The notes under the pieces were generated by a model. That model had not been told where the DNA came from. It searched no databases and worked only from the letters and a program-made list of their open reading frames with translations. From a virus, in the UHGV virus genome UHGV-2031204: a stretch of DNA of 64,000 nt; one strand, given 5' to 3'. The position numbers were made by a program, and so were the translations under genes. Below, piece by piece: positions 1-61,281 of this stretch. The number at the start of each line of letters is the position of its first letter. Position 1 is the stretch's first letter.

Positions 1-488
1 GAGCTATCTCGAGTGGTGTCCGAGATTCAGCGGTATCTGAGGGATCAATACGCCGTTATTGGCTAGACCCGAACGAGATCCCTTCGGATCATGTCATTAA
101 TACGCTTAAGCTTGATACCACCTCTCTGTTCAAACAACGTAGCACGCGCCCGATAACTTATCAGGAAGCTCACGATGAGCTTTTGGGTGCGTACGATTTA
201 TCGGTCGGTCTAGACACCGGGACGAGACATGTTGGCTTATCAGATTTCGAAAACCCCGAATATGGGAGTCTGTATGAAATCTGGATGGAAGTGTATCTGC
301 GTGAGCAGATAGGCGAGCATTTCAGAATGACCTTCGACGAGTGGTTAAATCGACCACGGTGGGAGATTATGATGATGCTCCGTGTGCTTAATCGTCGTAA
401 AGCTGCGATTAAGAAAGTCATGAGTGATGTTACTTCCGGTGACCCAGAGCTACAAGGTTTGGAGAAAGAACTTAAGCTGAAAAATTAA
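1..488 (+). CDS. hypothetical protein, 3' portion (gene starts upstream of window)
   Basis: Frame beginning at position 3 has no stop codon until TAA at 486-488; the ORF track only shows it from an internal TTG at 183. Followed directly by a hairpin and T-tract. Confidence 0.5.
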   Translation, partial: AISSGVRDSAVSEGSIRRYWLDPNEIPSDHVINTLKLDTTSLFKQRSTRPITYQEAHDELLGAYDLSVGLDTGTRHVGLSDFENPEYGSLYEIWMEVYLREQIGEHFRMTFDEWLNRPRWEIMMMLRVLNRRKAAIKKVMSDVTSGDPELQGLEKELKLKN

Positions 489-569: not shown

Positions 570-1424
570 ATGATTGACATTTATACCGATTACGCCGCCG
601 TTCTTACCGTCAATCGTGCGGAAGAACGTGCTGCGCCTTTCCTGGACTTAGTAACGCTGTGCATGGATTACGGTTACGATGTTGCGTTAAGCGATGTGTA
701 TTGGCAACCGTCGTCTGATCCTGCCGACGAAACAGTAAGACTGGAAGGGATTATTGTAAAATGCGCCGTGGCGTTAGGCAACCGTTTAGGCGTTGCTTTA
801 AACCCACAAGAAGTTTTCCGTAAACCGAAAGAGACCGTACGTATTCTAGATGGTATTACGTCTAAATTCGAAGAGTTCGAAGACACTGATACGTTATACG
901 GTCTCGTGATGTCTGGAGAAACGCCAGAGTTTATCCTGGAAAGTATCTGCCGTTACGTATACGGTGATGACAATATCCATTTTGAAGATTTGGTCATTCG
1001 TGTTTCACCCCGTGTAATGACGGTGATGCGCAACTATCTTTCAGCTATGGTTGTGGATGAACAGCTTGCTGTAGGTAACGATGCGCGTCTGACGCGTATT
1101 GCAGAATACTTGCGTCTTTATCCGCAAAACCCTTCTGCGTTCGTATTCCTAAACCTACCTGAAGATCCCGATTTGACGGTTGTCCAACAATCGTTAGTGT
1201 TTGACGTCGAAGATTACAGCGAAACAGAATTACTCGAGATGTATACGGTAGGGCTTTCGATTATCGATAACGATGACTTCGATGACGCGTATGCCGATCT
1301 TTCGACGAACTTAGAGAAACTTAATAATGATGGGTTACAACCCATTACTGTTTTACAACCTGCATTAAAAAGCCTACGGCTGATTTATCAGGTTGAGGAG
1401 GCAGAGCACGATGACGAGGTTTGA
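570..1424 (+). CDS. hypothetical protein
   Basis: Long ORF; ATG at 570 preceded by ggaaaagg; the track start at 558 is a TTG. Confidence 0.75.
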   Translation: MIDIYTDYAAVLTVNRAEERAAPFLDLVTLCMDYGYDVALSDVYWQPSSDPADETVRLEGIIVKCAVALGNRLGVALNPQEVFRKPKETVRILDGITSKFEEFEDTDTLYGLVMSGETPEFILESICRYVYGDDNIHFEDLVIRVSPRVMTVMRNYLSAMVVDEQLAVGNDARLTRIAEYLRLYPQNPSAFVFLNLPEDPDLTVVQQSLVFDVEDYSETELLEMYTVGLSIIDNDDFDDAYADLSTNLEKLNNDGLQPITVLQPALKSLRLIYQVEEAEHDDEV

Positions 1425-15552: not shown

Positions 15553-15611
15553 GGGGGCCCCTCATTCTAGGGGCGTGTAATTGGGTTATATAACCAAAGG
15601 AAATAAACGAA

Positions 15612-16883
15612 ATGGCAAATTTCGCAAAAACTCGCGCCGCTCGTGAATCGATGGAAGCGGCCGATGAAGTAATCGACGGTATCAGCAACGTTGAACCGGC
15701 AGAAGAGAACCTGGACGTCCAACTTGCGGACGTAGCATCTATCGACGGTCAGCTCGATCAGCTGGAAACCGACGGTGAAACCCTGGCTGCCGATACCGAG
15801 CGTACTGAAGACGCTATCGAACAGGCGGAAGAAGCCGTTGCTAACGGTGAAGAAATGCCGGAAGAAGCGGTTGCCCTGCACGAAGTGGCACAGGAATCCA
15901 TCGCACGTCGTTGGTGCCTGGAACGTACTAAACTGGCACGCGAATCCTATCGCCGTGGTCGTGGTATGACTGCTGCTGCCCAGGAAGGTTGGAAAGAAAC
16001 CCTGAAAGATCTTTACGATCGTTTCATTCAGTTCTGTAAAGAAGTGATTGCGAAGATCAAAGACCTGAAACTGAAATATTTCAACGTCGGTAAGACCGCA
16101 CAGAAACGTGCGAAGAAATATCAGGAAATGCTGCGTAAGCTGGGCAAACAGAAGAAAGATGAGATCTCTGGTGGCTTTATCACCAAGCTGTCTATCGAAG
16201 GTAAATTCGATGCCGCTGGCTCTATCGCTATTGCGAAAGAAGTTACCGCAGGTAAAGCTAAAGGTTCCATCGCTGTTCTGGAAAAACAAGCTGGTGAAGC
16301 TGTGACTGCCGTTACCAAAGGTGACGATGACGCATTCAAAGCAATGCGTGGCGATCAGCCGGTAGAACTGTTTGGTAAAGCTGCTTCTAAACTGCACACT
16401 CTGCCGAACTTTGAAAAAGGTGATGCGTCTAAACTCCTGGCTCTGCCGGGCAACGCTTACGTTCAGGCTGGTACTAAAGAACTGGCTGGCGGCCACAAGT
16501 TCACCGCAATTGCTTTCATGAGCACCGGTGACGCTTCTGACGATAAAGACGTGAAAACTCCGTCTGTTTCTGAAATGGCTGGTGCTGCTTCTGCTCTGGA
16601 AGCGATCGGTAAAGGTTTCGAAGCCGTACTGAAAGATTTCCGTGCTTACGATTCTGAAATCGTGAAGCTGCAACAGGCTGCTGAGAATGCTGCTAAGGCG
16701 CTGAACAACGAAAAAGACGATAGCAAGTGGGATGGCCTGCGTAACGCACGTCAAGCTGCCGATTGGTCTGTTAAGAACTACCAGACCCTGAACCGCGCAG
16801 TTAGCTATGTTGCTAACACCGTTATTAGCGGTCTGAATGGCTACCTGGGTGCTGGTATCGGTGCTTACGAAAAATCTAAATAA
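15612..16883 (+). CDS. abundant protein, paralog A of a tandem pair (probable virion component)
   Basis: 423 aa; strongly host-optimised codons (CGT, CTG, GGT, AAA, GAA); acidic N-terminal region; shares MANF..ARESME start, KLGKQKKDEISGGFI core and GYLGAGIGAYEKSK C-terminus with the next gene. Confidence 0.9.
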   Translation: MANFAKTRAARESMEAADEVIDGISNVEPAEENLDVQLADVASIDGQLDQLETDGETLAADTERTEDAIEQAEEAVANGEEMPEEAVALHEVAQESIARRWCLERTKLARESYRRGRGMTAAAQEGWKETLKDLYDRFIQFCKEVIAKIKDLKLKYFNVGKTAQKRAKKYQEMLRKLGKQKKDEISGGFITKLSIEGKFDAAGSIAIAKEVTAGKAKGSIAVLEKQAGEAVTAVTKGDDDAFKAMRGDQPVELFGKAASKLHTLPNFEKGDASKLLALPGNAYVQAGTKELAGGHKFTAIAFMSTGDASDDKDVKTPSVSEMAGAASALEAIGKGFEAVLKDFRAYDSEIVKLQQAAENAAKALNNEKDDSKWDGLRNARQAADWSVKNYQTLNRAVSYVANTVISGLNGYLGAGIGAYEKSK

Positions 16884-16965
16884 TCATTTAGATTCGTAGT
16901 TCCGTACAGTTCTTGAAATAAATCATCAGGGGAACAATACGTTCCCCTTAGAGGAAAAGCTTAAA

Positions 16966-18231
16966 ATGGCGAATTTCTACAAAAACAAAATTGCTCGTGA
17001 GTCTATGGAGTCTACTTCTACTGTAGTTCCAGACGGCATCGAACTGCCAGCAGAATCCGTAGAAGGCACTCTGGCCGATATCGAGCATGACACCAAACCG
17101 ATCGAAGCTCTGGACGCTGACGCTGAACTGCTGGCAGAAGACGGCGACGAAACTGACGCTCAGCTGGATGTTCTGGATGAAGCTCAGGCTGCTGCTGACG
17201 GTGAAGGTGCAGGCGAAGACGGTGAAGAACCGATGGATGCCGAAGAAGATATGCCGGACGACGCTGCGACTGCGCTGGACGTTGCTCAGGAATCTATCCG
17301 TTCTCGTTGGAACTTCGAACACCGTTCTTCTGTTGCACACGAATCCTACGGTTCTCGTAACCGTCGTCAGGTTGCTCGTGAATCCCTGTGGGAAGACATC
17401 AAAGCCTTCCTGGGCCGTATTCTCGATTGGCTGAAAGAACAAGGCCGCAAACTGAAAGATCGCTGGCTGAAATTCCACAACCAGGGTAAATCTATTCAGG
17501 CACGTGCTAAGAAATACGATGAAGTTATTCGTAAGCTTGGCAAACAGAAGAAAGATGAGATCTCTGGTGGCTTTATCAAGTCTCTGTCTATCGACGGCAA
17601 GTTCGTCGGTGATAATATTCCGAAACTGAAAGGTATCCTTAACCAGGTCTCCTCGTTCTATAGCGCTAAGATGCCTGCCATGGCCGCTAAAGCTGCTGAA
17701 GTGGTTTCCGATGTTACCAAAGGTAATGGCGTTAAAGTTGAAAAACTGAAAGCCGACTTTACCGAACTGTCCAAACAAGACAGTCTCCAAAACTTCAAGC
17801 TCGGTAACATGGCGGTGAAAACCGAGTATGACAACGAAGGCGGCTTCAGCTCCACCTTTGTTGAAGCTGAAAACAGCGTTGAAACTAGCGTGAAAACTCC
17901 GTCTGTTGGCGAACTGGCCAAAATCAATGCTCTCTTCAACGAAGTGGGTAAACAGATTGAGAAGAACGTTCAGGATTATCGTAAAGTCGAAAGCGCGCGG
18001 AAAACCTTTGAAGATAATATCGATAAGCTCCTGAAAGAAGTCGATAAAGTTAAGATCGACGAAAAACCGGAACTGACCGAAGGTGTACGTGCTGCCCGTC
18101 GTTTCATCACCAGCGTTAACCAGGGTCTGTCTCTGGGTGAGAAGGTTATTGCTTCTACTCAGAAACACCTGGCCGGTGGTCTGAACGGTTACCTGAGTGC
18201 CGGTATCGGCGCTTACGAAAAATCTAAATAA
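16966..18231 (+). CDS. abundant protein, paralog B of a tandem pair (probable virion component)
   Basis: 421 aa; same codon bias and shared blocks as 15612-16883, including a long near-identical nucleotide stretch around 17531-17606. Confidence 0.9.
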   Translation: MANFYKNKIARESMESTSTVVPDGIELPAESVEGTLADIEHDTKPIEALDADAELLAEDGDETDAQLDVLDEAQAAADGEGAGEDGEEPMDAEEDMPDDAATALDVAQESIRSRWNFEHRSSVAHESYGSRNRRQVARESLWEDIKAFLGRILDWLKEQGRKLKDRWLKFHNQGKSIQARAKKYDEVIRKLGKQKKDEISGGFIKSLSIDGKFVGDNIPKLKGILNQVSSFYSAKMPAMAAKAAEVVSDVTKGNGVKVEKLKADFTELSKQDSLQNFKLGNMAVKTEYDNEGGFSSTFVEAENSVETSVKTPSVGELAKINALFNEVGKQIEKNVQDYRKVESARKTFEDNIDKLLKEVDKVKIDEKPELTEGVRAARRFITSVNQGLSLGEKVIASTQKHLAGGLNGYLSAGIGAYEKSK

Positions 18232-18249
18232 TCCCTGATTGTTTAGTAA

Positions 18250-18297
18250 GAGAACCACCCTGTAATGGGGTGGTTCTCTCTTTTCTTTTTTTTTCGA
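18250..18297 (+). terminator. intrinsic terminator
   Basis: agagaaccaccctgtaatggggtggttctct followed by a long T-run. Confidence 0.75.
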
Positions 18298-18334: not shown

Positions 18335-18384
18335 TTACACAGTAATCTCTTTACGACTTGTTTATTACGTTTAGGAGAAATATC

Positions 18385-19026
18385 ATGAGCCGCATTAATT
18401 TAACTGATTTTGTTGATGGTGTTGTGTCTACGGATAAAGGTGTTGTTACGATGGTGGCACCGAATAGTAAAGTTGTTACTTTAAATCCGGTAGAACTGAT
18501 TTCTATTTCTACCTGGTTGCGCTTACTTTCTGGTAAGAAACCTAAAGACCAAGCGAAGGGTGGCCTATTAGTTGGTACACGTGAGTTTGTTTTCAAAGAC
18601 ATAACCCAAGATAAACTGGACAGCATTGCTAAAGAACTGAACGGCAAGCATAAAACTCGCGACATCGGGTGTGCCGAATATGACGGAGTAACGTACCATG
18701 CGTTTCTTGATAGTCACGTAGCATTGCGTGAAAAAGAAAATGGGATGTACGATTCAGTTTGTTTCTTTCACTTAATCGCACCAACAGAAAACGAAGCTGT
18801 GTATGAAACCGTTGAAAAATCGGCGGAAGCTGTTATGGAAACGGTGTCAGAACTTATAGAAGGGATGAAAAGAATCCCACGTGTGTTGAAAGTTACTGAT
18901 GGGGCTTTCGATTGTTTTAAATTATTACCCCTAATAGCTAGTAAAGAATACGAAGATGAGAACACCTTCGGACTATTCGAAATTAGTCTTTCGGAAGCAG
19001 TTGTTACTTTCTTTGAAGATTTATGA
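18385..19026 (+). CDS. hypothetical protein
   Basis: 213-aa ORF; ATG at 18385 preceded by ttaggagaaa; the track start at 18358 lacks an RBS. Confidence 0.8.
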   Translation: MSRINLTDFVDGVVSTDKGVVTMVAPNSKVVTLNPVELISISTWLRLLSGKKPKDQAKGGLLVGTREFVFKDITQDKLDSIAKELNGKHKTRDIGCAEYDGVTYHAFLDSHVALREKENGMYDSVCFFHLIAPTENEAVYETVEKSAEAVMETVSELIEGMKRIPRVLKVTDGAFDCFKLLPLIASKEYEDENTFGLFEISLSEAVVTFFEDL

Positions 19027-28650: not shown

Positions 28651-30213
28651 TCAAAAGAGTTCGTCACCCATGCCGCCGGTAAATACGTTAATCGACGAGG
28701 CTGTTACAGTTTCTTCTTTATCACAATCCCATGGCAAAATGCCAACATCACGGAAAGGTATTACAGTATAATGATAAGCTTCTTTGGTATCAATAATGGT
28801 ACGGTGTTTACCGCGTTGTACTTCTAAATAGCTGTGTCCGCTGACGACACGTTTGTTAAAATACATCTCACCGTCAGCTTCGTTGTCTAAGCTAGAGCAG
28901 TTGTCGTAAAGACCACGACCAGGTAAGCTCTTACAGAAACTTGCTGGGTCGAGTGCTTTTAATTTTTTGCCTTCTGGTGAGATTTGGTGTGGTGCTAAGA
29001 GGAAACCACGATTACGTACCACTTGGATGTTTCGCGCGATACGATAAATTTCTTTAATGTCACTACCCGCAATACCGTTACCGTGCCCTGCTTTGCTGAT
29101 AGTACCGAAATAGTCTCCGCGTATTCCAGCTACATGATAACCTCGACGTTTTAGATCTAAAATCAAATCATTCAAATAGTGAATTTTAAAATCGGAGTTT
29201 GTGTGTTTTTGGAAAATATACTCCCAACCGTTTGCCCGCATTTTACTACAGAGGTAATCTGACATTTGTGCATTGTGTAGCGCTTTTTCTTCGTCAGTTG
29301 CCGTTTCAGGTGCAACCATTACCGGAGCTGTACCTTCAAAGTGTCCGTAAAGTGCTTGATACGCGTAAGCCAAGTTAACATCTAATTCGTTTTCTAAACT
29401 TAAATCCAGAATAACCGGTTGTAAGTCACCTTTAACATTTGCCATCACCTTTTCTGGGGTGTTGAATACAGGAATGCTAATAGAGAGCAATAAACTGAAT
29501 AATGACTTACAGTTAAAGGGTAGTGCGGGCATTAGCCAGAGTTCTTCGGTGATCCCTTTGTTACAGCCAAGCATTTGGTTAATTGCTTTCCACCCCGTAC
29601 GTAACCCATTACCTGCCGCTTTCTTACTGATAGAGTCGAATACATGTACGAAGGGTGCTTTATTGTCAGTAATCAATTCCCCTACCAGAGAAGGAATCTT
29701 ATTATGAGAGCGTTCACTGAACGTGGATAAGGTATCCTTAAGGTCGTTGAGCGCCGTTTGTAAATCAACACGCGTTTCAGTGCCGTTCAGTGCGCCTAAC
29801 GTACGACCCAATTTTTGTTTCAGTTGTACGCCTTGAATAGCTTGACGTAACTGAAAGTAGTATTGTGCTACTTGGCGATTAAGATGCTCGATGCGTGCTT
29901 CTGGTTCTTCTGGAATATCATCTTCCAGGAATTTGGTAATCGTATCGTATAGAGGACGTATTTGCGTAGTGGCCAGTTTCAAACGTTTCATGACGTTTGT
30001 GTGGTCGTAAGGCATACCGCCGTCTATGATGGATGTGATGATATCCTTGATTTCGACGAGGGCGGCACGTTCGTCACCTTCTTCTGCGTAATCAGGAAGC
30101 TTAGCCTCTAACAGCACTTTTCTTATGATGTCGTGGTCCTTTTCAGGATCGGTCAGAAGACTTTCAGCGTATAATGTGGCTAAGGCGGTTATCAACATCA
30201 TTTTGTTATTCAT
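28651..30213 (-). CDS. hypothetical protein (520 aa)
   Basis: Long minus-strand ORF; no recognisable catalytic motif found by eye. Confidence 0.8.
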   Translation of the reverse strand: MNNKMMLITALATLYAESLLTDPEKDHDIIRKVLLEAKLPDYAEEGDERAALVEIKDIITSIIDGGMPYDHTNVMKRLKLATTQIRPLYDTITKFLEDDIPEEPEARIEHLNRQVAQYYFQLRQAIQGVQLKQKLGRTLGALNGTETRVDLQTALNDLKDTLSTFSERSHNKIPSLVGELITDNKAPFVHVFDSISKKAAGNGLRTGWKAINQMLGCNKGITEELWLMPALPFNCKSLFSLLLSISIPVFNTPEKVMANVKGDLQPVILDLSLENELDVNLAYAYQALYGHFEGTAPVMVAPETATDEEKALHNAQMSDYLCSKMRANGWEYIFQKHTNSDFKIHYLNDLILDLKRRGYHVAGIRGDYFGTISKAGHGNGIAGSDIKEIYRIARNIQVVRNRGFLLAPHQISPEGKKLKALDPASFCKSLPGRGLYDNCSSLDNEADGEMYFNKRVVSGHSYLEVQRGKHRTIIDTKEAYHYTVIPFRDVGILPWDCDKEETVTASSINVFTGGMGDELF

Positions 30214-30226
30214 GGAGCATCCTTAA

Positions 30227-30751
30227 ATGCAAATTCGTTTTAGTCCACCGTGGGAAGTTCAACCTAACATAGATAAAGGCGCTGCCGTTAAAAGTATAGA
30301 ATTGCTCCAGGCAGGGTTCTTTAACTGGTTATATGACTGTCCGAATGGTTTCAGTTCTATTATCTTACCTGAAGTAAGTCGTTCTGCTATTTATAAAGCG
30401 TTAATGGCTCCGCCTGTGCTTCCAGGTAAATATTATGATCAGGTGTTACGTCTGGTCGAATCAGGCGAAAAGGTTTCCCTTGACGATTTATATGGGGAAA
30501 CAATTCCTTGTCGCGTACGTTGGGTGTTTACTCAACGTGGTGATACGATTGTGGCGTCATTTGCAGAAGCGAAGTCCGGTTCGGGTTTTTCTTCGGGTGA
30601 AGACCACGCTGCGAAAAAGATGTTCTGCGCAGAACTTTTTAAATATATGCGTACCAAGACTCGCGTCGTGGATGACTGCTTCAGTACCTCAACGCAGTTT
30701 GCCGCTAACGAAGTGCTGACGCAATTATACGCATGTCATTTATCTCATTAA
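30227..30751 (+). CDS. hypothetical protein
   Basis: 174-aa ORF; ATG only 13 nt from the start of the divergent minus-strand gene. Confidence 0.7.
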   Translation: MQIRFSPPWEVQPNIDKGAAVKSIELLQAGFFNWLYDCPNGFSSIILPEVSRSAIYKALMAPPVLPGKYYDQVLRLVESGEKVSLDDLYGETIPCRVRWVFTQRGDTIVASFAEAKSGSGFSSGEDHAAKKMFCAELFKYMRTKTRVVDDCFSTSTQFAANEVLTQLYACHLSH

Positions 30752-30763
30752 GGTATTAAACAA

Positions 30764-33058
30764 ATGAAAGATACCCGAATCTCTAATCTGGAGAAACTCG
30801 TACAAGCTGGTAACTCGCTGGTACAAAGCGTCATTAGTAACAACAGTGCTGGCGAAATGTGGAACACCATCGTTGCTGGTGAGTCTGTACGTAGCAACAC
30901 GAAAGTTTTTGGTACCCTGCGTGACGATGCTGCACAGCACTACGCAAACGCGTTTGCTGGCGGTAAGAAAATGTCCCACGCTGCGGAAGTTGCTTCTGCA
31001 ATGATTCTGGGTGCTGCTGGTCACGGTATGGACCTGCAAGAAAAAGTAGCGCAAGAATACGCTAAGCCAGAATTCCATAGCCGTTTTAACCTGGACGTTG
31101 CGATTCCTGGTTCCCAAGCTGGTAACGGCGACTGGGGCAAAGAGCGTATGGTTGTTGCTCAGGAATACTACACCAACAAAGATTACGACAAAAACCTGGG
31201 TCTGACCTGGACGCTGAACGTACGTGCTCTGGAAACTCAGTCTCGTTTTGCTGAGACTCTGTTCCCGACCATCACCGTTGACACCAACGATGTTGGTATT
31301 ACCGTACGTACCAAAGTGACCACCGTTTCTCGTGGTGTCATGCACGCGTTACTGACCAAAGACGTTGTTGAAGATCATCGTCGTAACCTGCACGAAGCGC
31401 TGACTGACCACACCGTTCTTCAGGACGAAGCGATCAACATCGTTCCTTACGTAATGGAAACCGGTGAAAACGCTGAATACTTCGTAAGCGAAGATCTGGT
31501 ACCGAACGAATCTGTTCGTCTGGGCCGCGTACCTCCGTACCCGACTAACTACCTGAGCTTTGCTAAAGACACTCTGAACCTGTTCCAGCTGTCTGCGCAT
31601 CCGGGTATCGTTCAGGAAGGTTACGACGAAACTGATGAAATCGCACCGGGTTGTGCTCTGGGCAGCCTGCTGATTTCCGTACGTAAACCGACCGAAGAAG
31701 CGAAAGCAGGTAAATTCATCAAACTGCACGTTCGTGACATGCAGTTCGCAACCTTCCAGCGTCCTGCTGAAGGTGATGGTCGTGAGCTGGTACTGCAATT
31801 CCGTCGTACTGCGTTCTCTCTGAATGCGAAAACTACCGACTGGAAAGGCGAAGCTATTCCGGCACTGAAATCACTGGAACAGAACTCCTACACCCTGCGT
31901 TATGTGATCACCATCAACATGTCTCTGTTCACTACCGGTCAGTTCGGTGGCAAAGTTGACATCGCTGGTCACAAACTGGAAATCGAAGGTCTGTACGACG
32001 CTACCGGTAACAAAGTTGATACCAAATCTGGTACCGGCAAAGTTATCCTGGACGGTCTGAAACTTGAACTGATGGGCTGGCGCTTCGATGGTACTCGTAC
32101 CAACGAAAACCGTCGTACCCAGGGTCTGCTGCTCGACCCAATCTGGGAACAAGAAAACTACAAGCTGCAATACGGTTCTCCGATTCTGACCAAGTCTCCG
32201 GTTGGCGTTGAATACGACGATACCGAACGTCTGGACGACCTGATTTCCGCAGTTAACATCCGTAACGAACAGCTGGCTATCACTCAGACGCTGTCTTACA
32301 CCGAAGCGGTACGTAACGCTGCTGCAAGCATGATCACTCCGTGGGACAAACCGGCCATTCGTGGTCTGGGCCGTCACTGGGTTGCTCCGTGGTTCAAAGA
32401 GTCTGACTACAACGTTGATGAAGTTGTACAGTCCCTGGATACCAAAGATGCACTGATCAACGCTCGTCAGGGCCTGGTACAGCGTATCGGTAATCAGGTA
32501 ACTCAGGCTATCCAGGAATCTCGCTTCATTCCTGCGCTGCGTCTGTACACTGCCGATCCGGACATTCTGCCGAAAGTTGTTATTGCAACTGACGAACCGA
32601 CTGCATCTATGCTGCTGCTGGTACAGGGCGACCAACGTCTGCTGGGCGATCGCTACGAATACGAAGTGATCACCACCAACGATGACCGCTGGCGTATCTA
32701 CAACGCAGCTGACGGTTCCTGGACTCGTCGTCTGCAATGGTTCCTGAAAGTTCCGACTGCGGACGATGGTTCCTACAACGTGCTGAACTGGGGTAACCAC
32801 TTCTGGTCTCCGATCATGGTTACCAACATCAACATTCAGCGTAACGGTTCTACCTCTAAAGAGCTGGCCGTACAGCCGCGTAACGCGCACATCTGCCACT
32901 GCCCGATCACTGGTCTGATCTGGGTTAAAGGCATCACCAAACTGGTTGAAGAAAAACTGGCTTACAATGTTTCTGTTGAACAGAACGGTCAGAAACAAAC
33001 CGAAGGTGGTGTAGCAGGTAACGTTGCTGGCGAAGGCAAAGCTGCTGCTGGTAAGTAA
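30764..33058 (+). CDS. highly expressed 764-aa protein; candidate major capsid protein (alternatively tail sheath or phage-nucleus shell protein)
   Basis: Very strong host-optimised codon usage over the whole ORF, unlike neighbouring genes; size compatible with the large capsid proteins of jumbo myoviruses; terminator follows. Function is inferred, not motif-based. Confidence 0.6.
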   Translation: MKDTRISNLEKLVQAGNSLVQSVISNNSAGEMWNTIVAGESVRSNTKVFGTLRDDAAQHYANAFAGGKKMSHAAEVASAMILGAAGHGMDLQEKVAQEYAKPEFHSRFNLDVAIPGSQAGNGDWGKERMVVAQEYYTNKDYDKNLGLTWTLNVRALETQSRFAETLFPTITVDTNDVGITVRTKVTTVSRGVMHALLTKDVVEDHRRNLHEALTDHTVLQDEAINIVPYVMETGENAEYFVSEDLVPNESVRLGRVPPYPTNYLSFAKDTLNLFQLSAHPGIVQEGYDETDEIAPGCALGSLLISVRKPTEEAKAGKFIKLHVRDMQFATFQRPAEGDGRELVLQFRRTAFSLNAKTTDWKGEAIPALKSLEQNSYTLRYVITINMSLFTTGQFGGKVDIAGHKLEIEGLYDATGNKVDTKSGTGKVILDGLKLELMGWRFDGTRTNENRRTQGLLLDPIWEQENYKLQYGSPILTKSPVGVEYDDTERLDDLISAVNIRNEQLAITQTLSYTEAVRNAAASMITPWDKPAIRGLGRHWVAPWFKESDYNVDEVVQSLDTKDALINARQGLVQRIGNQVTQAIQESRFIPALRLYTADPDILPKVVIATDEPTASMLLLVQGDQRLLGDRYEYEVITTNDDRWRIYNAADGSWTRRLQWFLKVPTADDGSYNVLNWGNHFWSPIMVTNINIQRNGSTSKELAVQPRNAHICHCPITGLIWVKGITKLVEEKLAYNVSVEQNGQKQTEGGVAGNVAGEGKAAAGK

Positions 33059-33073
33059 TCTTGCTTAAAAAGA

Positions 33074-33115
33074 GTCTAAGCCCTTCGGGGCTTAGACCTT
33101 TTATTTTTTTTTCTT
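33074..33115 (+). terminator. intrinsic terminator
   Basis: gtctaagcccttcggggcttagac followed by a long T-run. Confidence 0.8.
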
Positions 33116-33240
33116 TCTATTATTTTTTGGATAGATATTATTAAAGGGAGACGGCCAGTTGGTTTTAAAGGAGTATGTATGGAAAAAATACAGTTTAAAC
33201 TAAAGATATGTGTCATCATTAAAATTTAGCTTGGGTTCCC

Positions 33241-34251
33241 ATGAAACGTCTTGATATTGATGTGGTGCCCAGTATCTCTGAACGCTCGTTATGTCAAACG
33301 TCTGGATTGAGGAAACTTGTTACGTTTGAAAATAACACTGGCGTGCCTATCCACGTCACTGAAACCAGTGGCGGTAGCTTTATTTTAAATGCTTCGAAAA
33401 ACCCCGCTGATGAGCATGGGGTTATCGTTTACGTGACGTATCAATCATACGGAAGATGCGCGAATCTCAATGGGTTTGCTGAACTGATGCCGGGAAAACA
33501 GTTTTCTCGCTTTTGCGACCAATTGAAAGAAAAAGGGGAGGTAACGTTAGAGTATGCAGTAAACGACGTTGGTGCGTTGCTGCGAGGAGATTTGGTTGTA
33601 CTAAAGCAGTTAGGCTTTGCTTTCTCAACAACACCGATACGCTTAGATAGTAAACCCCCAACTATGCGCCCTGGAGGTGAGCGCACTGAATTTACATTGG
33701 GTGTTGTTGTTGTGCAACGCTACGACGAGCCCGACAATTATCGGTGGCTACGTTTCTACGGTACGAAAATGAAAATCGAACCAATAACGTCACGCTATTA
33801 TGAACCGGGCGTTTACATGATAATAGGAGGTGGAACGAGGGTGGAAGGGAGTCGAATGATTCATTTTGAATTTGACGACATTACTTCACCGTTTAGATTA
33901 TTTAAGGATGAGGCAGCGGCGGACGCGTTTCGATGGCAAGAAGCAGTTCCCGGTCTCTTTGAGATTAAGCAGCGTTTAGAAGAGCAGTACAAAGAAAAAT
34001 TAGAAAGCTTGGATTCGGCAAAAGACAAGTTAGAATTGGAACACAAGAAACAACTACAGAGCATGGCTTTAGAAAAGGAGCGATTGACTTTAGCATTCAA
34101 GCAACAGGAATTGGAAGCGAAGTCACGGGCTGAGGCGCGTAAAGAATTCTACGAGACGCGTTCTTACATTCGTAAGGACGGCTCAGACCTATTTAAATCT
34201 GTCCCTGCGTATTTGGCGGCGGGTGTCGCATTTATAGGGATGCTAACGTAA
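33241..34251 (+). CDS. hypothetical protein with coiled-coil region and C-terminal hydrophobic segment
   Basis: 336-aa ORF; C-terminal part is K/E/L-rich and ends with AYLAAGVAFIGMLT; weak RBS, preceded by a 16-codon upstream ORF. Confidence 0.75.
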   Translation: MKRLDIDVVPSISERSLCQTSGLRKLVTFENNTGVPIHVTETSGGSFILNASKNPADEHGVIVYVTYQSYGRCANLNGFAELMPGKQFSRFCDQLKEKGEVTLEYAVNDVGALLRGDLVVLKQLGFAFSTTPIRLDSKPPTMRPGGERTEFTLGVVVVQRYDEPDNYRWLRFYGTKMKIEPITSRYYEPGVYMIIGGGTRVEGSRMIHFEFDDITSPFRLFKDEAAADAFRWQEAVPGLFEIKQRLEEQYKEKLESLDSAKDKLELEHKKQLQSMALEKERLTLAFKQQELEAKSRAEARKEFYETRSYIRKDGSDLFKSVPAYLAAGVAFIGMLT

Positions 34252-46113: not shown

Positions 46114-46767
46114 GTGGAACCATTACGCTTAATGACCAGAACGTTACTGATACCTATTCAGGACCTGAAGGTTGGACCGTTGGTCACCTCCAATGGGGAA
46201 ATTGTTGATTTCGTTAAAGAGGAAAAAATTGTTACGGCGGCTTTTCAAGAGACGCTCCATCGCCATTATCGTGCAGTACCTTTATCTGGCAGTCTAGATT
46301 GTCCGGGTGTAGAGGGGAGTACGTCTGCGTTAATAGCGGAGCATTTAGAAAAGAAAGGGTTTGGGGTCGGGAAAGGACAGGTTTTTGTAGACACTGCCAC
46401 ACTGAACAAATACCAAAACGACCTAATGTTACAGATAAGGAGATTACTTGCCCGTTATGGTCTTTTCTCGATTAATTGTAAGTTTGACGACGTTCGGATG
46501 TTAGACCACGGTTTTACTACCAGCCTTAAAATCTGTCGTGGTAAAAGATTCATACAGTTTACCTGGTGGGTGCCATCCCTACGAGGTGAGAGAAAAACGG
46601 TGGAAGGGCTGTATGGTTGGGCTTTATGGGCCGAAGTTCCAGTAACGAAACTCGATGCGATTATTCCACAGCATCGAAACGTTCCACTTAGCAGTTTATT
46701 TACTTCTGGTGGGAACACCACGTGGGATGAATTTGTTAAAAACGTTTTATCGATAGGGGAACAATAA
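46114..46767 (+). CDS. hypothetical protein
   Basis: GTG at 46114 about 8 nt after aaggag; the track start at 46087 would put the RBS inside the ORF. Confidence 0.7.
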   Translation: MEPLRLMTRTLLIPIQDLKVGPLVTSNGEIVDFVKEEKIVTAAFQETLHRHYRAVPLSGSLDCPGVEGSTSALIAEHLEKKGFGVGKGQVFVDTATLNKYQNDLMLQIRRLLARYGLFSINCKFDDVRMLDHGFTTSLKICRGKRFIQFTWWVPSLRGERKTVEGLYGWALWAEVPVTKLDAIIPQHRNVPLSSLFTSGGNTTWDEFVKNVLSIGEQ

Positions 46768-47243
46768 TGCAGCAGTTAGATATTACCGAAGACAAAATTT
46801 CCGCTAAATTTCCTGAATTACGTGAATACGTCAAAGACTTAAATTCGATTCGGGAAACGCCAGTTAGAATCACGTTGGCTGTTGAAGACGATATTACACA
46901 TGGGGTTGCAATCTGGGAGCCGGGGAATCTTATCTATCTGGTAGTGGCCGAAGGTTCTCGTCGTAGCGGTGTAGGTTCCTTTTTACTGAAATACGTTCAA
47001 CTTAATTCAGATCGTCAAATGGTGATGTGTCGTGTCCATCCCTCAAACATAGACGGGCTGTGTTTCTTTTCCAAAAAAGGCTTCCAAATAGACCGATGGT
47101 TTATTGCCAGTGACTCCCGTCGGTATTTTCGTATGACGAACAGTAACGTTGATTCGTCATACGCCCCGCCGGAAGAAGGATATTTGGTGGATTTTATTGA
47201 AAACACCCCCATCTTTCTCTCTGTTGCGGATAAGATTTATTAG
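46767..47243 (+). CDS. putative GNAT-family acetyltransferase
   Basis: IYLVVAEGSRRSGVGSFLLKYVQ resembles GNAT motif A (R-x-x-G-x-G), at the usual position in a ~160-aa protein. Confidence 0.5.
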   Translation: MQQLDITEDKISAKFPELREYVKDLNSIRETPVRITLAVEDDITHGVAIWEPGNLIYLVVAEGSRRSGVGSFLLKYVQLNSDRQMVMCRVHPSNIDGLCFFSKKGFQIDRWFIASDSRRYFRMTNSNVDSSYAPPEEGYLVDFIENTPIFLSVADKIY

Positions 47244-49479: not shown

Positions 49480-50613
49480 ATGTCAACATTAGATTCCGAT
49501 TTAGAAGTCCTTTGCGATGACTACGATCGATTGGTCGCGTTAGAATCGCTTAATGTTAAAGACAACTATCCGGCGGTTGTCGCTATCCGAAAACGGTGGG
49601 CTTTAGATGATGTCCACGTTGCGTTGGAGTCCGCAGCGATGATGGAACGCGCGCAATTTGTTGCGGACACCGAGCCTTACGCAGGGGTAGGTAAAGCGGT
49701 CGCACGCGCGACCGGCAGAGCGGTTAAGGGAGTTGGACGCGTTGCTGGAAAAGCAGCAGTGGCAGGAGCCAAAGCGTCTGGAAAATTCGCAGGTAAACAT
49801 TCTAAGCAACTGGCCTTACGTTTTATCGACTTCGCGGAAGCCGCTGGTAAAGAAGTTATTAATGAACTGAAAGAAGCGACGTCCAAAGCATCGTCGTTAG
49901 AGCGGAAGCTACAGAAGTTAGAAGCACGTTTAAGTTTACTCGGTATCAAGGACACCTTAAAACCGGTTGACTGTGACACAGGAAGTTGGACAACCAAAGT
50001 TTGTTTAGAAGACAAGCCTAACGTAAAAGCATGTATTGAGTTCAGTAAGAACCTGAGCGCAATGGATGCGATGGTCAACGAGTATACTGTTAAAACACGT
50101 ACGTTAATCGGTAAGAGCAAGAAAGTTACCGAGAGCGGTTTGGAGAAAGTGGGCCGGTCAACGAACTGGGCGATTAAACGAAGCGCAGGACTGTTCGGTA
50201 TTATCGATCCGTTTAAAACGGTGAAAGCATATCCGTGGCCAGGTAACGTGGTGGTCGTTGAACACGACAGCGGTAAGATTGAGTGGGCGATTGCCCGCGA
50301 TGGTGATTTTGGCCACACAATTAAATCTCTGAACTTGCACGAAATCGGTTCAGCATTCGACGCCGTTAGAAACATTATCCGAGCGTTACGTCAGCGTGGT
50401 GCGAAACGACGTAGTGTTGGGTATACAGGAATTTATGATGAAATTCAACGTATGCGTAAGGAACTTAAGTCGCTTGAAGGGCGGGAGTTACGCGACGCTA
50501 CCGTACGTTATAAAAACGCACTGCGTTTAGAAGATGCGTTTACTACCTCGTTAGTGCGCGTTGCGGAAGGGTTACTGGAATGGTGCAGGTTGTCGCTGAT
50601 TGAGGTTAAATAA
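49480..50613 (+). CDS. hypothetical protein with Gly/Ala/Lys-rich repeat region
   Basis: 377-aa ORF; region GKAVARATGRAVKGVGRVAGKAAVAGAKASGKFAGK. Confidence 0.8.
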   Translation: MSTLDSDLEVLCDDYDRLVALESLNVKDNYPAVVAIRKRWALDDVHVALESAAMMERAQFVADTEPYAGVGKAVARATGRAVKGVGRVAGKAAVAGAKASGKFAGKHSKQLALRFIDFAEAAGKEVINELKEATSKASSLERKLQKLEARLSLLGIKDTLKPVDCDTGSWTTKVCLEDKPNVKACIEFSKNLSAMDAMVNEYTVKTRTLIGKSKKVTESGLEKVGRSTNWAIKRSAGLFGIIDPFKTVKAYPWPGNVVVVEHDSGKIEWAIARDGDFGHTIKSLNLHEIGSAFDAVRNIIRALRQRGAKRRSVGYTGIYDEIQRMRKELKSLEGRELRDATVRYKNALRLEDAFTTSLVRVAEGLLEWCRLSLIEVK

Positions 50614-51080
50614 TGCGTATTACTATTATTCTCAAACCCGACAGTAAATACGGAAAGTTATACGGCGACCAGGTACTCAAACTGCACAACATGCTGTTCG
50701 CAGAAGAGAAAGTGCGTATTAGTCAGTTAACCGGTCGCGACACGTTCAACCCAATTGAACACTTAGAAGAGATTTGGCCCCAAGATTATCTCTGTGCGTG
50801 TGCCGTGGATGTCAACGAACAACTTCTGGGTTTCATGACGTTCTCAATAGGTTCTTGCTCGAAGGACACATTTGTTTATATTGGGAACTACTATGTGATT
50901 CCCGAAGCGCGTTCTCAGGGGGTAGGGCGTGCGCTTATGGACAAAGTCCGTGAATACGGAAAGTCCAAAGGTTGCGGTTGGATGAGTTTGGATGTGCTGG
51001 ACAACAACGTTAAAGCTATCTCCTTGTATGAGAAAATGGGATTCCGTACTGAATGCAGGGAAATGATAAAGGAAATCTAA
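50613..51080 (+). CDS. GNAT-family N-acetyltransferase
   Basis: YVIPEARSQGVGRALMDKVREYGKSKGCGWMSLDVLDNNVKAISLYEKMGF matches GNAT motifs A and B (Q/R-x-x-G-x-G/A ... Y-x-K-x-GF). Confidence 0.7.
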   Translation: MRITIILKPDSKYGKLYGDQVLKLHNMLFAEEKVRISQLTGRDTFNPIEHLEEIWPQDYLCACAVDVNEQLLGFMTFSIGSCSKDTFVYIGNYYVIPEARSQGVGRALMDKVREYGKSKGCGWMSLDVLDNNVKAISLYEKMGFRTECREMIKEI

Positions 51081-52742: not shown

Positions 52743-53357
52743 ATGGAAATTAAGCGCTTTGAACTCCCTAACAACTACACTTTAGTTGAAGTTGCTGAAA
52801 ATGAAATTGGCGAAAATAGAAAGAATGCGGGCTTTGTCTCGAAAAATTCGCTTTTGATTTATGAAGGTGAGAAATTAAAGTATACCGTCGGTCATCTCTT
52901 CACTGAAAATGGAAAACTCTGGGAATCGCAGTACGAAAGACTGTTGTCGAAATTCCGTTCCCAATTATTGCTGAGATACCTTCGCGATGAGGAAGACTAT
53001 AAACTCTTTGTAACAAAAGAACAACTATTGGCTGATAAATATCCCGCTTATACTGCATGTTTAGCAGCTCTTAAATTGGTCGGCGGTTATGAGGAGTTCG
53101 TGGCGGGCAGTAGCAATTTTGCTATCTCACGACACAGAGATCGCGTCATCATCAAAGATTTTGAGGTGACCCATATACGTACTGTCACGCTCAGCCTCAA
53201 GCATCCTGAAAAGGTGAGTATCGATGACCGGTACGTCATTGCAAACAAGGCCATTTCTTTTACAGCGAAATACCATACCGTCGGTTACCCTACGAGTAAG
53301 GAAGTGTACGAAGAACGTAACCTTGAGAGCTTAATTTCCACATATTTTGAATTGTAA
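52743..53357 (+). CDS. hypothetical protein
   Basis: 204-aa ORF with aagagagat RBS. Confidence 0.8.
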   Translation: MEIKRFELPNNYTLVEVAENEIGENRKNAGFVSKNSLLIYEGEKLKYTVGHLFTENGKLWESQYERLLSKFRSQLLLRYLRDEEDYKLFVTKEQLLADKYPAYTACLAALKLVGGYEEFVAGSSNFAISRHRDRVIIKDFEVTHIRTVTLSLKHPEKVSIDDRYVIANKAISFTAKYHTVGYPTSKEVYEERNLESLISTYFEL

Positions 53358-54544: not shown

Positions 54545-55216
54545 ATGCCACCGAAAATTGGTAAAACTGTAATTGAAGAAACTGTAAAGAACGAGACTAA
54601 AGCCAATGAAGTTCAACATGCTGCGAAGGTTGAACTTTTACCCTGCGTTAATGAAATACTCGGGGTGAAATTCTTAACTTTTAGCCCGCATACTGACCTG
54701 GTTTTCGATCTTTATCAAGACCAGCCTTTCAACCTATTCACACTTGTCTGTACTTATAATGGCGATGTTCTGGCAGTTGCTCCTGCTCTTAATAGAGACA
54801 AGTTACTTACAGGTACGGTTATTACTGAAATTCTTCTGCGGTTAATGCATAAGTTTGAAGGGCCTGAACTTGACAAAATCGCTGTTAAGTTAGCTGACCT
54901 ACTAGTCAATGCTGCCGTCTGGTTGAGTTTTAACCCTTCTATCTATTTCCATTTCAATACAAATATTCTTCACGCCGTAACAGACGATGGTAAAAAGTAT
55001 CGCATCTTAATTAAGGGTGGGGTGCAACAACCTTTGTTCTCTAGACAAAACTGCCATATTAAGTTTTCGCCTGACTTGGTAGAAGTTTACGGCCAGCGAG
55101 TAGCGGATGGCCACTACGAGGTCCATCTCAGATTTTTCAATTACCTGTATGAAAAATTAGGGAAAGCTGGCTTGACACCCAATCTTGCTTTCACAAGTTC
55201 TGCCCCTTTTGCGTGA
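54545..55216 (+). CDS. hypothetical protein
   Basis: 223-aa ORF with taaggag RBS. Confidence 0.8.
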   Translation: MPPKIGKTVIEETVKNETKANEVQHAAKVELLPCVNEILGVKFLTFSPHTDLVFDLYQDQPFNLFTLVCTYNGDVLAVAPALNRDKLLTGTVITEILLRLMHKFEGPELDKIAVKLADLLVNAAVWLSFNPSIYFHFNTNILHAVTDDGKKYRILIKGGVQQPLFSRQNCHIKFSPDLVEVYGQRVADGHYEVHLRFFNYLYEKLGKAGLTPNLAFTSSAPFA

Positions 55217-55311: not shown

Positions 55312-56310
55312 ATGGCTTTTAGGATGATTATAAAACATACCGCCACAGATTTAACAGTAGGTCGGTTAGCACGTAGAGATATTCGCAACCCTCAACTTCA
55401 GGCATGTTTATCGGGCCCTAACGGTGCTGTGATTCGTGAGGCGTTGTGCAATAGTGAACTGAATACGTTCTCTTTACAAAAAGGAAAAACAATTCAAGGG
55501 TTTATCATCACAAAACACATTTACGGTGACCCAACGTTACACTGCTTGTATATGCATGAAATTGTACCGGGCTGTTTGAACAAACTGAACCTACTATTGG
55601 TACTCGACTATACCGGTTTTACGTATCTTAATCGAATCGCCAGTGGTGTAGAAGAAATCGCCGAACTTAATGACTTAGGATTTAAACACACCCGCACTAC
55701 GTACCGTTTAGGTACACGCTCGTTGTTGGATATCGCTCTACCAACAAACGTGAAGAACGTCTCCGGCGATTTTTATAAAGAGTTAACCGCCGCACAACGC
55801 GAACAGCTTATGTTGCTTTTGGGTACGAGCGTCGTTGAAAACATCAACGCTGACCCTGTGGGCCGCACACGACAAATAATGCCGCAAGTCGAAACGTTGG
55901 TGGAGCTAGTACGCCACGTCAACCACCACACTTACGTTTGGATGGACGCTAACGATGTTGTGGGTGTGGTGCAAGTTAAATTGCGTAATCTTAACGAGTG
56001 TGAATTAAAAGCCATTGCGGTAAATGAAACACATCGTGGTCGTGGTATCGGACGGACTTTGTTGTATCGTGCTCTACAGATTGCTTCGACAACAGCGGCA
56101 CCATTAGAGATAGGGTGTTTCAATAACAACGCACCGTTTAGACACTTGGCCGTCGATTTATTTAAATTTCGACCTTTCGAATACGAATTTGTTTTAGTGC
56201 GCGACGAAAACGTCGTCAGTTGGGAGCGTCAGAAAAATCATGTCAAGTTGGTGTTAGACGACGAAGTGTCATCGTTACAAGGCGGATATAATGCGGAAAC
56301 CAATTATTAA
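55312..56310 (+). CDS. two-domain protein with C-terminal GNAT acetyltransferase domain
   Basis: C-terminal region LKAIAVNETHRGRGIGRTLLYRALQIAS is GNAT motif A-like; the N-terminal ~170 residues have no motif I recognise; 3' end overlaps the dam start by 20 nt. Confidence 0.5.
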   Translation: MAFRMIIKHTATDLTVGRLARRDIRNPQLQACLSGPNGAVIREALCNSELNTFSLQKGKTIQGFIITKHIYGDPTLHCLYMHEIVPGCLNKLNLLLVLDYTGFTYLNRIASGVEEIAELNDLGFKHTRTTYRLGTRSLLDIALPTNVKNVSGDFYKELTAAQREQLMLLLGTSVVENINADPVGRTRQIMPQVETLVELVRHVNHHTYVWMDANDVVGVVQVKLRNLNECELKAIAVNETHRGRGIGRTLLYRALQIASTTAAPLEIGCFNNNAPFRHLAVDLFKFRPFEYEFVLVRDENVVSWERQKNHVKLVLDDEVSSLQGGYNAETNY

Positions 56311-57106
56311 GTGGATGGGTGGGAAAACACGCGTTTTAGGGGAATTACAAAAGGTCTTACCTAAACGTACAACCTTTGTAGAACCGTTTGTGGGTGCAGG
56401 GTCTGTTTTCCTAAATACGAATTACAGCCGGTATATTTTATCGGATTCTAACCCCGATTTGATACGCTTACTTTGTGTTGCGCGTGAACAGCCTGAAGAA
56501 CTGATCGCCGCGTCGCAGCCGTTGTTCTTAGACGGTAATACCGCCGTAAAGTATATGGAACGTCGTGAGCTCTTTAATAGCGGTAAATCGATGTCAGAAG
56601 TTGAACGGGCAGCGATGTTTTTATACTTAATGCGTCACGGCTATAACGGGATGTGTCGCTATAACAGTAGTGGTGGGTTCAATGTTCCGTTTGGTCGTTA
56701 CCCGAATGGGGTTTATTACCCATTAGAAGAAATTCGGGATTGGGCTAAACGTTGCGCAGAAGTTGATTATCTGGAAATTGTTTGTGAGGACTTTCGTTCT
56801 GTATTAGCGCGGACACCTGAGGATGCTGTGATTTATGCTGATCCTCCTTATATTCCGTTATCGGATACCGCGAAACATGCGCAATACCACCGTAAAGAAT
56901 TCTCACAAACGGATCATCGAGAATTAGCCAAGTTACTACAGCAGCAGGTGGAACGTGGCAACAGCGTCGTGCTGTCAAATGCAGACACCCTGCTCACCCG
57001 AGAAATTTATTACGGTTTTGAGTGGCGCAGTATTGAGGTCGGTCGCTATATGGGTGCGTCTGGTGCCGCTCGGAAAACAGTGACTGAACTACTGGGAGTG
57101 CTCTAA
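56291..57106 (+). CDS. dam: DNA adenine (N6) methyltransferase, Dam family
   Basis: KWMGGK, EPFVGAGSVFLNT, LYLMRHGYNGMCRYN..GGFNVPFGRY and the catalytic DPPY are all present and collinear with E. coli Dam (comparison from memory). Confidence 0.9.
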   Translation: MRKPIIKWMGGKTRVLGELQKVLPKRTTFVEPFVGAGSVFLNTNYSRYILSDSNPDLIRLLCVAREQPEELIAASQPLFLDGNTAVKYMERRELFNSGKSMSEVERAAMFLYLMRHGYNGMCRYNSSGGFNVPFGRYPNGVYYPLEEIRDWAKRCAEVDYLEIVCEDFRSVLARTPEDAVIYADPPYIPLSDTAKHAQYHRKEFSQTDHRELAKLLQQQVERGNSVVLSNADTLLTREIYYGFEWRSIEVGRYMGASGAARKTVTELLGVL

Positions 57107-60816: not shown

Positions 60817-61281
60817 ATGAAATGTTTTGAATCTAAAGAAATTGTTGAGTTGTTTAAGCAGCGTGAGAAAACCGCTTTCCGTGACCTGTACGATTCTGAT
60901 TATCGTCCACTGTTTGCGGTATTGTTGAAACTGGATAAAGAACCCGAAGTCGCGTTAGCAGAGGTACAGCACCACCACGTCAGTTTCGTATTAACCGAAA
61001 ACATGAGCCGGTGGGTAGATGCTATGCTGATCCGTATCGGGCTCTTGGAAACGCCGCACCGTTGGGAAGTGGTTATTCAGAAATCATTATTCCCACGGGA
61101 AGACATTTTTAACAAATATCGTCCGAAACAGTATTACAACCACGACGGGTCGCCAAAACGTGCTTTTCTGGCACCACAACACTTCGTAACCTACGTAACG
61201 TTGCGTTACAAAGACACCGTGGTACCGTTTGACACCTACCTGGAAATGCGTGAGATAATTTTAGGGAAGAATCCGTCATGA
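60817..61281 (+). CDS. hypothetical protein
   Basis: 154-aa ORF with ttaggagaaaag RBS. Confidence 0.8.
   Translation: MKCFESKEIVELFKQREKTAFRDLYDSDYRPLFAVLLKLDKEPEVALAEVQHHHVSFVLTENMSRWVDAMLIRIGLLETPHRWEVVIQKSLFPREDIFNKYRPKQYYNHDGSPKRAFLAPQHFVTYVTLRYKDTVVPFDTYLEMREIILGKNPS

Follow-up and report, generated by a model that had tools for sequence, protein, structure and literature searches.

The 64,000-nt stretch of the viral genome UHGV-2031204 analysed here (the window) carries on its plus strand an open reading frame (ORF) that codes for the major capsid protein (MCP) of a jumbo phage. An initial annotation, made from the DNA letters, had proposed an MCP or some other very abundant protein on the grounds of host-like codon usage and size; the coordinates that it gave for the 764-aa ORF proved exact, and the ORF starts with ATG (Table 1). 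The MCP gene is preceded by a gene for a 174-aa protein and, beyond it, by a divergently oriented minus-strand gene for a DnaB-like helicase. It is followed by a gene for a 336-aa protein and by an RNA-polymerase-like gene (PHROG 2943, "polymerase"). Order and orientations are the same in the window, in Salmonella phage SPN3US (a Seoulvirus), in Erwinia phage vB_EamM_Asesino (an Erskinevirus) and in eight near-identical metagenomic or Logan contigs. Elsewhere the window encodes a DNA polymerase, an RNA polymerase beta subunit, virion structural proteins, DHFR, a thymidylate kinase and a RuvC-like resolvase, a content that is typical of the SPN3US-like phage group.

Table 1. Features of the MCP locus and of two further codon-biased genes in the window. 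Domain limits were carried over from phiKZ gp120 by means of a phmmer alignment and are approximate. CAI, codon adaptation index; Nc, effective number of codons.
Feature	Position	Strand	Remarks
MCP gene	30764..33058	+	ATG start, 764 codons plus stop; orthologue of SPN3US gp75, Asesino gp91 and phiKZ gp120
Possible weak Shine-Dalgarno element, AAGG	30750..30753	+	10 nt 5' of the ATG; sequence reading
Predicted N-terminal propeptide	30764..31165	+	Residues 1-134, 14.3 kDa; from the aligned SPN3US cleavage site
Predicted mature capsid protein	31166..33055	+	Residues 135-764, 630 aa, 70.6 kDa
N-arm	residues ~135-176		
I-domain with linkers	residues ~177-467		
P domain	residues ~468-522 and ~677-713		Spine helix corresponds to the model's long helix, 486-522
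A domain	residues ~523-676 and ~714-723		
C-terminal arm	residues ~724-764		
Intrinsic-terminator-like hairpin followed by a T run	33074..33110	+	Terminator scan and sequence
gp53 orthologue	15612..16883	+	68% identity; CAI 0.767, Nc 31.5
gp54 orthologue	16966..18231	+	60% identity; CAI 0.716

Family searches account for the protein from end to end. The Pfam profile PF25620 (PhiKZ_MCP, Bacteriophage PhiKZ major capsid protein gp120) is matched over positions 2-634 of 635 with an E-value of 3e-209 (696.7 bits, the gathering cut-off being 27), and the match to PHROG 3231 ("major head protein") has an E-value of 7.5e-281 (934.5 bits) and covers positions 1-744 of 746. Annotated capsid genes of Asesino, SPN3US and some 70 further jumbo phages match the gene with 80-83% identity at the DNA level. 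The protein shares 78% of its residues with SPN3US gp75 over the full length and 80% with gp91, the major head protein of Asesino and the closest match that the phage collection offers (80.5% identity at the nucleotide level). Every homologue found is either a phage MCP or encoded on a contig the size of a jumbo-phage genome. The exact 764-aa sequence is already present in GenBank as DAY66607.1, "MAG TPA: major capsid protein [Caudoviricetes sp.]".

Resemblance to gp75 extends to the sizes of the precursor and mature forms, the presence of an A-X-E motif at the aligned position, the order of the flanking genes and the CAI. There are differences as well. The protein studied here has an insertion of 3-4 residues in the propeptide, so that the predicted cut follows AQE-134 and not ATE-130, and its C-terminal tail is shorter and rich in Lys and Ala (...GEGKAAAGK), whereas that of gp75 is rich in Gly and Thr. 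The gap after the MCP gene measures 182 nt, as compared to 333 nt in SPN3US, while in Asesino an additional gene of 810 nt (gp92) separates the MCP gene from the next conserved gene, synteny being otherwise the same. This interval (33059..33240) is thus a variable spot among relatives; in the window it is AT-rich and holds nothing recognisable besides the terminator hairpin. Among more distant relatives, Pseudomonas phage phiKZ gp120 (8Y6V) and the MCP of Klebsiella phage phiKp24 (8BFL) show just ~20-25% identity to the protein, and no sequence similarity is detectable to HK97 gp5, to T4 gp23-type proteins or to encapsulins. In phiKZ the N- and C-arms are bound by a set of minor and decoration proteins. 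The protein is about twice the size of HK97 gp5 and T4 gp23-type proteins because it carries an insertion domain of ~250 residues and a 134-residue propeptide, the latter double the length of the T4 gp23 propeptide (PMC5694885).

The end-to-end match also bears on one of the two other abundant proteins that the initial annotation had left as alternatives, the shell protein of the phage nucleus (chimallin), which would be made early. Chimallin is encoded by Seoul-like phages (bioRxiv 10.1101/2024.12.31.630880) and would be abundant. The PhiKZ_MCP match and the 78% identity to gp75 speak against it, gp75 being the shell protein of the SPN3US virion by mass spectrometry and electron cryo-microscopy (PMC5694885, PMC7552025); moreover, the chimallin of SPN3US (YP_009153538) is separate from its MCP (YP_009153369), and all strong structural matches of the protein are to HK97-fold capsid proteins. 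No homology to ChmA (SPN3US, Goslar, phiKZ) emerged, the MCP family accounting for the whole protein; no direct alignment with chimallin was run. We regard a nuclear shell protein at this locus as barely conceivable.

Evidence on the fold agrees with the assignment as MCP. Sequence homology to four solved capsid proteins spans residues ~148-733, with E-values of ~1e-49 for 36za/11bt ("Major capsid protein"), 6.6e-35 for phiKZ gp120 (8Y6V) and 4e-34 for phiKp24 (8BFL). phiKZ gp120 has an HK97-like architecture (N-arm, P and A domains) to which an insertion domain is added that extends the E-loop (PMC11297242), and the SPN3US shell is an HK97-type lattice of T = 27 made of gp75 (PMC7552025). An AlphaFold2 model was made from a 37-sequence alignment built by homologue search. 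When this model was compared to the Protein Data Bank with Foldseek, the top matches were phiKZ gp120 (7e-29), the phiKp24 MCP (3.6e-28) and the capsid protein of the Staphylococcus jumbo phage S6 (4.9e-5). Structure prediction had been suggested as the way to tell an HK97 fold from sheath or shell folds; the top matches in structure-based searches are exclusively HK97-fold capsid proteins and encapsulins, and the protein thus has the HK97-type fold with a large insertion domain that marks the family.

The same searches address the remaining alternative, that the protein forms the contractile tail sheath. Sheath proteins are abundant and of similar size (SPN3US gp256 has 681 aa), their genes are fairly codon-adapted (CAI 0.555 for gp256) and two phage P1 sheath entries appear among the Foldseek matches. 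These entries are, however, non-significant (E-values 0.016-0.04, probability 0.12-0.13), as are all matches beyond the three capsid proteins listed above. Neither a sheath nor a nuclear shell family was matched in Pfam at E <= 0.1, and family, orthology and fold results all refute the sheath, whose profile and fold were not found. Its probability is practically negligible.

SPN3US gp75 is cleaved at ATE-130, and all mapped sites of the gp245 protease lie after A-X-E (PMC5694885, PMC10052503). In the alignment, ATE-130 falls on VAQE(134)-YYTNKD of the present protein, and both E134 and Y135 are invariant in 37/37 homologues. The cleavage site of phiKZ gp120 (E163-N164) falls within about one residue of the aligned position; unlike the site considered here, the phiKZ motif is not A-X-E. 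By homology, cleavage is thus predicted after A-Q-E(134). The predicted masses of precursor and mature form are 84.9 and 70.6 kDa, compared to 83.9 and 70.4 kDa for gp75 (PMC5694885). Over the propeptide the AlphaFold2 model is mostly helical, at low to medium confidence. A relative with an MCP gene of ~90% nucleotide identity encodes a homologue of gp245 (81% identity; annotation S80 family morphogenetic serine protease).

Codon usage, from which the initial annotation had started, was quantified relative to a reference set of 30 E. coli K-12 genes (ribosomal-protein genes, rpoA, tufA and fusA; NC_000913.3). The MCP gene has a CAI of 0.788 and ranks first of 60 ORFs in the window; the median of the 30 reference genes themselves is lower (0.68). 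Leaving out the MCP gene and two other biased genes (the last two entries in Table 1), the remaining 57 ORFs have a mean CAI of 0.368 (standard deviation 0.064, maximum 0.529), which places the MCP gene at z = 6.6, well outside what chance would give. Wright's Nc is 32.5, as compared to 43-61 for most other window ORFs of at least 120 aa. Codon fractions calculated for each amino acid correlate with those of highly expressed E. coli genes at r = 0.96, the value for the rest of the window being 0.66. CTG makes up 93% of Leu codons, CGT 85% of Arg, TAC 96% of Tyr and AAC 91% of Asn, and AGA, AGG, ATA, GGA and GGG are absent. Since a scan of the window for tRNA genes found none, phage tRNAs encoded there do not explain this codon choice. 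The reading of the ORF as one built from host-preferred codons was therefore accurate.

The bias is not uniform along the gene. Adaptation is lower over the first 134 codons (CAI 0.643) than over the remainder (0.80-0.85); the lower value of the propeptide part may be due to weaker selection or to a translational ramp. This part (30764..31165) is also the least conserved MCP region among homologues.

The initial annotation had further held the gene to be unlike its neighbours. This holds for the immediate neighbours but not for the window as a whole, where an MCP-like codon signature is common to two other genes, and to these only. The two are adjacent paralogues (36% identical to each other) and are the orthologues of SPN3US gp53 and gp54. 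The A-X-E protease motifs of gp53 (ARE-12, AQE-95 and AQE-125) are conserved in the product of the first. The window resembles SPN3US in that the gp53 and gp54 partners are there and are equally biased. By mass spectrometry, gp75, gp53 and gp54 lead all other proteins of the SPN3US head in abundance (spectral count/mass 22.6, 21.0 and 20.2, respectively), and they have the same production profile, gp53 and gp54 being high-abundance internal or ejection proteins (PMC5694885, PMC7552025); gp75 ranks first in the virion with 1,560-1,615 copies (PMC5694885, PMC10052503). The three biased genes of the window thus correspond to the top three head proteins of SPN3US by abundance, which bears out the very high abundance that had been deduced from codon usage. 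By the same measure, the SPN3US sheath gene gp256 and the adjoining gp255 (CAI 0.658), tentatively the tail tube, both fall below the MCP gene.

Translational selection acting on the proteins that are made in the largest amounts would be expected to give such a pattern; selection as the cause of the bias is itself a deduction. An alternative is that the gene is a recent acquisition from a host, or its bias a compositional artefact. Its G+C content at third codon positions (0.525) lies above that of most neighbours (0.38-0.45), and the near-perfect agreement with codon usage of highly expressed E. coli genes (r = 0.96) could be read in the same way. However, the bias is kept in other genera (CAI 0.777 for SPN3US gp75, 0.758 for Asesino gp91) and, within the window, extends only to the genes of the two other most abundant head proteins; conservation in orthologues and limitation to these three genes both argue against artefact and recent host transfer. 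Against host origin stands also the phage affiliation of all homologues found, and ordinary or horizontally acquired E. coli genes differ: with the same weights, genes of the weakly expressed gsp operon have CAI values of 0.24-0.40. We consider this alternative very unlikely, if somewhat less so than the sheath or the nuclear shell protein. Together the three alternatives keep only a very small share of the probability.

A corollary of the bias is the presence of long antisense shadow ORFs. Three lie on the minus strand of the MCP gene (31871..32998, 31349..31798 and 30740..31345), reaching 375 aa, and two more are found opposite the gp53- and gp54-like genes (15567..16754 and 16948..18258, minus strand); the latter, at 436 aa, exceeds the length of the real gene. 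None of them has a family match. They arise because the biased sense genes nearly avoid TTA, CTA and TCA, the reverse complements of stop codons (1, 0 and 1 occurrences, respectively, in the MCP gene). Such ORFs could mislead gene callers that favour the longest ORF.

Two further observations concern the gp53/gp54 family. A terminator-like hairpin is found after the gp54-like gene, at about 18249-18290, and the internal-head-protein family has a third representative (PHROG 2497, E = 7e-74; 377 aa), encoded at 49480..50613 on the plus strand. The latter has ordinary codons (Nc 52.2), which suggests a low-copy paralogue.

Some caveats attach to the assignment as MCP. It is computational for this particular phage. 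The AlphaFold2 model is of medium quality (mean pLDDT, the predicted local distance difference test score, 62.6; pTM, the predicted template modelling score, 0.58) and its global template modelling (TM) scores to phiKZ gp120 are low (0.29-0.39), so that structural support comes from local and domain-level matches together with sequence homology. The prohead protease gene is absent from the window. A sigma-70 promoter scan of 30000-33400 gave no plus-strand site upstream of the MCP gene; on the minus strand it gave one site, where 3.4 were expected.

Nothing was found that contradicts the assignment. The present data show the family to which the protein belongs, its orthology, the synteny, the fold, a conserved cleavage motif, the codon bias and the restriction of this bias to the genes of the three most abundant head proteins. 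We therefore consider it nearly certain that the ORF codes for the MCP of a Seoulvirus/Erskinevirus-like (that is, SPN3US-like and phiKZ-related) jumbo myovirus of Enterobacteriaceae. A phiKZ-like jumbo-phage MCP had been the first option of the initial annotation, and the reasoning that led from expression signature and size to a capsid protein was sound.

By analogy with SPN3US and phiKZ, the following sequence of events may be proposed. The MCP would be made late in infection on host ribosomes, in very large amounts, as a precursor of ~85 kDa. Together with the portal, the orthologues of gp53 and gp54 and further head proteins, this precursor would assemble into a prohead, in which a gp245-like prohead serine protease of the S80 family would cut after Glu134 of A-Q-E and remove the 134-residue propeptide. 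The 630-residue mature protein, with an HK97 fold in which a large insertion domain would replace the E-loop, would then build up a large icosahedral shell as hexamers and pentamers (T = 27 and about 1,560-1,620 copies in SPN3US and phiKZ; PMC5694885, PMC10052503, PMC11297242). The codon bias would reflect translational selection, the gene keeping to codons typical of strongly expressed enterobacterial genes since the phage may need more copies of its product than of any other protein of its own. For the present phage, the T number, the copy number, the late timing and the promoter are all suggested by homology; a first rank of the MCP among its virion proteins is supported indirectly, by the highest CAI in the window.

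A T4 gp24-like vertex-specific paralogue was considered and rejected, as just one gene of the PhiKZ_MCP family is seen in the window. In SPN3US and phiKZ, one protein makes both pentamers and hexamers (PMC7552025, PMC11297242).

Sequences flanking the MCP gene offer few signals. The intergenic space upstream measures only 12 nt, and the putative Shine-Dalgarno element overlaps the stop codon of the 174-aa gene. When the upstream regions of the three codon-biased genes were read by eye, no obvious common motif appeared; no wider search for a late-promoter motif was made. Downstream, a hairpin that starts 16 nt past the MCP stop codon (33074-33097, GTCTAAGCCC-TTCG-GGGCTTAGAC) has 10 pairs, of which 6 are G-C. 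To judge from its sequence, this strong hairpin with the T run that follows probably ends the transcript. It was detected by the terminator scan on the minus strand too.

Through the MCP gene, the window can be placed in a Seoul-like or Erskinevirus-like jumbo phage. The closest isolated phages share 76-77% nucleotide identity with the window over 31-38% of the surrounding 25 kb, low values that indicate a separate lineage at the level of species or genus. This lineage was not found in the isolated-phage collection above ~80% nucleotide identity. The protein belongs to a cluster of 378 members defined at 90% identity, whose named members are encoded on contigs of 221-227 kb from assemblies of isolates of Salmonella enterica (serovars Chester, Enteritidis and Kentucky), Shigella flexneri and Enterobacter ludwigii. 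Database entries for circular "plasmids" of E. coli 98232 (221,873 bp) and E. ludwigii 51A:C (222,441 bp) are relatives at ~90% nucleotide identity. The lineage is common on contigs of this size, and occurrence of the same protein cluster in Salmonella, Shigella, Enterobacter and E. coli assemblies supports an enterobacterial host; by comparison, the host of Asesino is Erwinia. The "plasmid" relatives (NZ_CP173450.1 and NZ_CP134650.1) are listed as circular and non-mobilizable, with the capsid gene labelled "hypothetical protein", an annotation gap on RefSeq "plasmids" that is easily fixed.

Seoul-like jumbo phages are reported to be common as persistent infections of bacterial isolates: of 299 genomes, 84% came from bacterial assemblies (bioRxiv 10.1101/2024.12.31.630880). 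The present lineage agrees with what that work calls "persistent virulent jumbo phages". A more specific reading is that the MCP belongs to a not-yet-isolated, genus-level Seoul-like "persistent" lineage with episome-like genomes of ~221-227 kb that travel with Enterobacteriaceae isolates, the codon match reflecting long-term association with the host; we see the chances for and against it as evenly balanced. Persistence itself has already been described (in the 2025 preprint), and if this reading is true, the new elements would be just the membership of this lineage and the link to codon usage.

As to the gene itself, the family, the fold, maturation, abundance and even the label of the exact sequence are already known, and the differences from gp75 are minor. 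It is a textbook jumbo-phage capsid gene with little discovery value of its own. Its practical value lies in placing the window within a phage group, as described above, and in the codon-bias signature, which, read by eye, correctly picked the capsid gene and marks exactly three genes in the window.

Other observations concern the remainder of the window. Four ORFs lack a PHROG match (18358..19026, 52743..53357, 54545..55216 and 60817..61281); the last of these has a fairly low Nc (39.5). The segment 18001-20000 has a G+C content of 0.40, as compared to about 0.46-0.48 around it. Finally, the right half of the window contains genes of GNAT-type (acetyltransferase-like) PHROGs and a DNA methyltransferase gene (46767..47243, 50613..51080, 55312..56310 and 56291..57106).

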